Positions 56,432-56,887 of a DNA stretch of 64,000 bases are shown here, piece by piece. Within the stretch, counting starts at the first letter, position 1; the number at the start of each line of letters is the position of its first letter. Under the pieces are notes generated by a model. The model was not told where the DNA came from. It did not search any database and saw nothing but the letters and a program-made list of their open reading frames with translations. Made by a program: the position numbers and the translations under genes. Origin of the DNA: Escherichia phage teqsoen; the sequence record MN895436.1; one strand, written 5' to 3'.

Positions 56432-56887
56432 TTATTTTAAATCATCTGCCCAATCGAGTTTAAGAGGCTCTTTGTATTCACGATCTAATACGACCGGAAT
56501 TTGTACATCGCCGCTAAATGATAAGGGCCCAACATTATAAGACAATGTTATATGCGGTGTGTAATCATCAAAATCATGTGTAGCACCTAGTGCCCGCGCA
56601 TACATGTGTCGACAGCGCAGATATTCAGAATCTAGCACAAGTACAAGAGTCGATCCATCTTGTGTTTTCCATACTTCTAAATGTCCAGAAGAAGCTACTT
56701 CAAAACTTCCACTCGATGGAACATATGGAACATTTACTCTTGAATAACATATAGTTGAATGAATTTTTTCTCTAGGAACTGGATTAGGAACACGTAAAGA
56801 GCGCTGAAGTTCTTCCAGCGCATCAAGTGTTAATTCTGAAAACTTAGCTGCTACATAAAGACCCGTTGAAAAGTCTTTAAATTCCAT
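56432..56887 (-). CDS. 57B: 2H phosphoesterase (gene 57B position)
   Basis: 151 aa; two H-x-T/S motifs (HSTICY, HITLSY); immediately upstream of 57A. Confidence 0.85.

Follow-up and report, generated by a model that had tools for sequence, protein, structure and literature searches.

Which protein does Escherichia phage teqsoen (MN895436.1) encode directly behind gene 57A, and does it act on the nucleotide signals of host immunity? We addressed this question in the window, i.e., the whole stretch of 64,000 nucleotides that was analysed. The initial annotation had described a 151-aa protein with two H-x-T/S motifs at the 57B position, had read it as a 2H phosphoesterase and had pointed to the T4 57B product as the reported anti-CBASS nuclease Acb1; it had also suspected the T4 vs.4 cyclic-nucleotide sponge among the small ORFs in 45081-45839. 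Both proposals were borne out, as set out below.

Identity of the gene behind 57A

The gene and the elements used to identify it are the following.

56432..56887 (including the stop codon), minus strand: acb1 (gene 57B), 151 aa with an ATG start (ORF listing, PF23474, 7T26/7T27 and identity with T4 57B)
56887..57129, minus strand: gene 57A, tail-fibre assembly chaperone, 80 aa (Pfam PF17594 (GP57), E 5.2e-51; T4 gene order)
56885..56889, minus strand: TAATG junction in which the 57A stop TAA overlaps the acb1 ATG (DNA alignment with T4)
56753..56761, minus strand: first catalytic motif, H43-S44-T45 (T4 H44/T46), codons cat tca act (published tetrad)
56546..56554, minus strand: second catalytic motif, H112-I113-T114 (T4 H113/T115), codons cat ata aca (published tetrad)

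The 151-aa ORF has exactly these boundaries and lies in the same place as 57B in T4. It adjoins 57A on the downstream side of the latter, and the order gene 1-57A-acb1 is that of the T4 and GiZh annotations. Gene 1 (dNMP kinase) is upstream of 57A according to the annotation of the closest records, and the succession of gene 1, 57A, 57B and internal-protein gene(s) is common to teqsoen, T4 and GiZh.

Using Pfam, we found that the protein matches the profile "Anti-CBASS protein Acb1" (PF23474) with 202.7 bits (cut-off 27, E 2.6e-60), its residues 8-149 covering profile positions 1-144 of 144, and that no other family is detected in it at E <= 0.01. The NCBIfam scan gave no model matching the acb1 product and, with none for Acb1 or Acb2, is uninformative. 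A single solved structure was matched, that of Acb1 (PDB 7T26/7T27; E 4.1e-62, residues 8-148), with 68% identity between its chain and the window protein over 141 aligned residues. The authors of this structure describe a compact 2H phosphoesterase fold, in agreement with the class named in the initial annotation. By homology to 7T26/7T27, the same compact fold and a C-terminal lid that shuts over the ligand are predicted for the window protein, whose C-terminal segment is that of T4, residue for residue. Alignment with T4 gp57B (NP_049750.1; NC_000866) settled the equation with 57B: residues 2-152 of the T4 protein are identical to the window protein at 151 of 151 positions. The acb1 DNA differs from that of T4 at three nucleotides, two of them synonymous and one located in the first ATG of T4.

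In the 151-aa protein, the pattern H-x-[ST] occurs exactly twice, as H43-S-T45 and H112-I-T114. The number of motifs was set aside as evidence because two or more also occur in about 16% of 20,000 shuffles of the same protein. To examine their conservation, we aligned 31 distinct homologues with MAFFT, namely the window protein, the Acb1 of Erwinia phage FBB1 and IMG/VR loci (36 loci fetched). In this alignment, H43, T45 and the block P111-H112-I113-T114-L115 are invariant, and the H-x-T/H-x-T tetrad aligns with its T4 and FBB1 counterparts, so both catalytic histidine motifs are present. Since the full-length Acb1 profile, the structure and T4 57B are all matched and the motifs are invariant in the 31 homologues, we consider the observation real. 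The window numbering (H43/T45/H112/T114) is that of T4 minus one because of the start codon.

T4 57B was found by activity-guided fractionation as the 3'3'-cGAMP degrader of infected cells and was named Acb1 (Hobbs et al. 2022, PMC9117128), which confirms the initial annotation on this product. In the T4 enzyme, the scissile phosphate is placed over the HxT/HxT tetrad H44, T46, H113 and T115, and the H44A/H113A mutant is inactive; a T4 acb1 deletion mutant was also made and set against wild-type T4 in plaque assays on hosts with CBASS operons, and the deletion renders T4 sensitive to CBASS (PMC9117128). A transposon library showed 57B/acb1 to be dispensable on E. coli K-12; only when the host expressed CBASS were insertions in it depleted (bioRxiv 10.1101/2025.11.20.689424).

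Because of the sequence identity, the mechanism of T4 Acb1 transfers directly to the window protein, and from the same identity we infer its enzyme activity. No argument against the Acb1 identity was found in the sequence. We are thus close to certain that 56432-56887 on the minus strand is the acb1 (57B) gene of a T4-like phage (Tequatrovirus), encoding an anti-CBASS nuclease that acts as T4 Acb1 does.

Homologues of Acb1 were detected in 1,470 of the 50,697 phage records searched by tblastn with the protein, 498 of them at an identity of at least 99%, and they reach phages of Klebsiella, Acinetobacter, Vibrio and Aeromonas. Compared over the surrounding 24 kb (40000-64000), Escherichia phage teqhal shares 98.5% identity with the window, and for many further Tequatrovirus genomes the value is 96-98%.

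Alternative functions, start codon and expression

The 2H superfamily includes LigT, and "RNA ligase" is the label both of phrog_755 and of the homologues in the RefSeq records of T4, GiZh, T6 and others. Taken at face value, these names would make the protein a LigT-type 2'-5' RNA ligase or RNA-repair enzyme that works on RNA ends and not on immune signals. However, no LigT or 2'-5' RNA ligase profile was matched: at E <= 0.01, Pfam returned Acb1 (PF23474) as the sole family, with LigT-type families absent, and NCBIfam returned none. Moreover, the identical T4 protein accounts for the cGAMP-degrading activity of infected cells (PMC9117128), a ligase activity of T4 Acb1 is not described in the cited literature, and newer records name the protein "anti-CBASS protein Acb1" or "cyclic nucleotide phosphodiesterase". 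With no ligase family matched and a different activity demonstrated for the identical T4 protein, the ligase reading of PHROG and RefSeq was rejected as highly improbable. The label is a superfamily-level carry-over from older 2H/LigT-based annotation, without experimental basis. A reading that extends the anti-CBASS assignment, and that we consider unlikely though distinctly less so, is that the main natural targets are other messengers, e.g., the cyclic oligoadenylates of type III CRISPR, so that the anti-CBASS role would be partial. Acb1 has a broad specificity, cutting 3' of adenosine in several cyclic di- and trinucleotides (PMC9117128), and papers on Panoptes/mCpol treat Acb1 and Acb2 alongside CRISPR-polymerase-derived cyclic nucleotides. 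Yet no sequence feature separates the window protein from T4 Acb1, and such a role would belong equally to the known enzyme.

The remaining alternative concerns the start codon. In T4, the junction reads ATGATG/TGA and the protein is annotated one methionine longer (152 aa). Relative to T4, a single G-to-A change converts the first ATG into ATA and simultaneously the 57A stop TGA into TAA; acb1 starts one residue later than in T4 because the first ATG is ATA and the next codon is ATG. Since the start annotated in T4 is removed by this one change, the gene might be poorly expressed or not expressed at all in this phage. The ATG directly after ATA, however, leaves the frame intact to the same stop, and the TAATG overlap with 57A is the commonest arrangement in the 36 IMG/VR relatives, whose junctions are mostly xTA-ATG as in the window, with a minority of ATG-ATG or ATG-ATT. 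The protein is also encoded at 99% identity or more in the 498 phage records, which points to a maintained gene. We consider the chance that the gene is silent for this reason to be negligible, and the altered codon was rejected as a sign of inactivation, given the ATG that follows it and the majority status of TAATG. With an ATG as the next codon, used as the start by most relatives, and with the crystallised FBB1 construct starting no earlier than the counterpart of position 8, a functional effect of the missing methionine is very unlikely. The start-codon difference is ordinary annotation-level variation; possibly the 152 aa annotated in T4 include one residue too many, or the start is simply flexible.

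With the acb1 reading retained, we looked for signals of its expression. A consensus scan detected no sigma-70-like site between 57A and acb1, and the promoter-like hits in the region (14 found against 11.8 +/- 3.6 expected) are at chance level. An acb1-specific promoter was thus rejected, the sigma-70-like hits within the gene being no more than chance would give. The lack of a promoter in the scan and the TAATG overlap suggest co-transcription with genes 1 and 57A together with translational coupling: acb1 would have no promoter of its own and would be transcribed by read-through from gene 1 and 57A, and its translation would be coupled to that of 57A via the stop/start overlap. In T4, 57B/acb1 and vs.4/acb2 show mainly middle/late expression (transcriptome atlas, bioRxiv 10.64898/2026.03.30.715471).

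The acb2 gene and other differences from T4

About 11 kb from acb1, the interval 45081-45839 is occupied by three small ORFs on the minus strand, with regB (44560-45021) on one side and the vs.6-like, vs.8-like and denV genes on the other.

45359..45625 (including the stop codon), minus strand: acb2 (gene vs.4), predicted cyclic-nucleotide sponge, 88 aa (PF24729, 7UQ2, T4 Vs.4)
45081..45359, minus strand: vs.3 homologue (phrog_2037, E 3e-40; T4 vs.3 position)
45618..45839, minus strand: vs.5 homologue (phrog_1986, E 1.3e-43; T4 vs.5 position)

The middle ORF proved to be the suspected vs.4 gene. Its product matches the Acb2/Tad1 hairpin family of Pfam (PF24729; E 1.2e-19, 70.6 bits, cut-off 27) and the PDB entry 7UQ2, "Vs.4" (E 1.4e-53), and read from the ATG at 45625 it is identical to T4 Vs.4 at 84 of 88 positions. 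This ATG is the true start of vs.4; the mechanical ORF opens instead with the TTG at 45661. As sponge candidates, the homologues of vs.3 and vs.5 were rejected, since they gave no Acb2/Tad match and belong only to PHROG families without an assigned function. At 73 aa, the vs.5 homologue is longer than its T4 counterpart (58 aa), and it overlaps the start of acb2 by 8 nt where T4 has a 36-nt gap.

T4 Vs.4 acts as a sponge for cGAMP (Kd about 30 nM), and its hexamer takes up three cGAMP molecules, contacted by Y8, F82, H11, K23 and R79 (Jenson et al. 2023, PMC10097602). Vs.4 is the same protein as Acb2, and T4 has both Acb1 and Acb2 (commentary PMC10449767, preprint PMC10312549). In the window protein, all five of the cGAMP-contact residues Y8, H11, K23, R79 and F82 are kept; the four substitutions (L44F, N46S, C50D and F52L in T4 numbering) are clustered and fall outside the published contact residues. 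There is a slim chance that these substitutions alter the ligand spectrum (e.g., towards cyclic trinucleotides, which T4 Acb2 reportedly does not bind) or the sensing of Acb2 by sponge-detecting systems such as Panoptes.

Further differences from T4 were observed around both loci. Two internal head protein genes, which replace the ipI of T4, are located after acb1.

56102-56359, minus strand: internal head protein gene (ipV in GiZh; phrog_3499)
55792-56091, minus strand: internal head protein gene (ipVI in GiZh; phrog_8111)

The MKTFKEF leader, typical of internal proteins targeted to the capsid, is found at the start of both products, and T-even phages are known to be hypervariable in this cassette. 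Three copies of a repeat of about 41 nt (55751-55791, 56049-56089 and 56379-56419) accompany these genes: each of the two ip genes, and likewise the trna.4 homologue, is immediately preceded by one copy. In the last two copies, which share 71 nt, the minus strand has a promoter-like TTTACA-17-TACTAT site with a TG extension; for the first copy, no such site is listed by the scan. The repeats resemble reiterated early promoters and could also provide sites of recombination through which cassettes are exchanged.

At 47210-48017 (minus strand) and 48447-48454, internal-protein genes again differ from T4 in content and position: the slot that ipII/ipIII occupy in T4, between denV and e, is empty, and two proteins with an MKTYQEFI(T/A)E capsid leader are encoded instead between the vs.8 homologue and denV. 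The first has 157 aa (phrog_3155, internal virion protein) and the second 105 aa (phrog_3966, unknown function).

The tk.4 homologue (43197-43676, minus strand) is a 159-aa macro-domain protein assigned to phrog_335, "phosphatase". It shows a weak similarity, below the cut-off, to the DarG ADP-ribosyl glycohydrolase antitoxin (NCBIfam NF048014; E 1.5e-6, 27.8 bits against 250), and it might reverse ADP-ribosylation by host defence. The vs.6 homologue (45839-46201, minus strand) contains a glycine-radical domain (Pfam PF01228, E 2.8e-18), and its T4 counterpart is annotated as an autonomous glycyl radical cofactor (GrcA-like). Finally, blastn aligned nothing from the corresponding T4 region to four stretches (42448-43012, 53072-53597, 53989-54257 and 55358-55544), which belong to the tk.1-tk.3 and tRNA/segB areas and to part of trna.3. 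Replacements or indels of this kind, by comparison with T4, are usual in the hyperplastic regions of T-even phages.

Proposed action and known systems

The following course of events is proposed for teqsoen from what has been shown for the identical T4 protein. Acb1 would be produced during infection as a small, metal-independent 2H phosphoesterase and would bind the products of host CBASS cyclases, namely 3'3'-cGAMP, cUA, cAAA and cAAG, with c-di-GMP excluded. It would then twist the adenosine such that its 2'-OH attacks the adjacent 3'-5' phosphodiester, and acid-base catalysis by the tetrad (here H43, T45, H112 and T114) would open the ring 3' of adenosine, with a 2',3'-cyclic phosphate as intermediate. 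Linearised in this way (e.g., to GpAp), the signal would be unable to activate CBASS effectors such as Cap5, CapV, Cap4 or NucC; with the effectors silent, abortive infection would not occur and the phage cycle could be completed. The Acb2 hexamer, as shown for T4 Vs.4, would sequester cyclic dinucleotides without cleavage. Acb1 and Acb2 in one genome would together provide a two-pronged anti-CBASS defence.

The Acb1 finding itself is already known: gene, structure, mechanism and the role against CBASS were all published in 2022, and the sponge partner followed in 2023. Hundreds of sequenced T4-like phages have the same Acb1 protein. The finding is right but unremarkable. Its value is one of annotation, as teqsoen can be recorded as a carrier of both known anti-CBASS genes, acb1 and acb2. 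The phage is expected to escape most CBASS that use adenosine-containing cyclic nucleotide signals, and it possibly triggers decoy-based systems that sense such counter-defences. The widespread labels on 57B homologues are out of date: in many records they are still called "RNA ligase" or "hypothetical protein", and a few recent ones say "anti-CBASS protein Acb1".

T4 Acb1 is the closest known counterpart. It shares with the window protein residues 2-152, the place directly after 57A, the catalytic tetrad and the C-terminal lid segment, and differs in the extra annotated first methionine, the TGA stop of 57A and the two synonymous nucleotides. Downstream of 57B, T4 has a single ipI whereas the window has two internal-protein genes. 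The Acb1 of Erwinia phage FBB1 (7T26, apo; 7T27, with 3'3'-cGAMP) belongs to the same family, with the tetrad conserved and, by homology, the same fold. It comes from another phage lineage, however, with differences at about one third of its residues, and it is the FBB1 sequence, not the T4-type one, whose structure was determined.

The counterpart of the window Acb2 is T4 Vs.4/Acb2 (7UQ2; PMC10097602; the Acb2 family of Huiting et al. 2023), which occupies the same slot between vs.3 and vs.5 and differs from it by L44F, N46S, C50D and F52L. Acb2 sequesters the signal whereas Acb1 cleaves it, and the two sequences are unrelated.

More widely, Acb1 resembles the 2H superfamily (LigT-type ligases and cyclic phosphodiesterases) in its two H-x-T/S motifs, its metal-independent acid-base chemistry and the 2',3'-cyclic phosphate. 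Unlike the LigT-type enzymes, its substrate is a cyclic oligonucleotide immune signal, and no LigT-type family of Pfam is matched. Apyc1 (anti-Pycsar), which has a different active site (mutant H64A/H66A/H69A) and targets cCMP/cUMP (PMC9117128), and the cGAMP phosphodiesterases of animal viruses are likened to Acb1 by strategy, as in each case a viral enzyme destroys the nucleotide alarm of its host.
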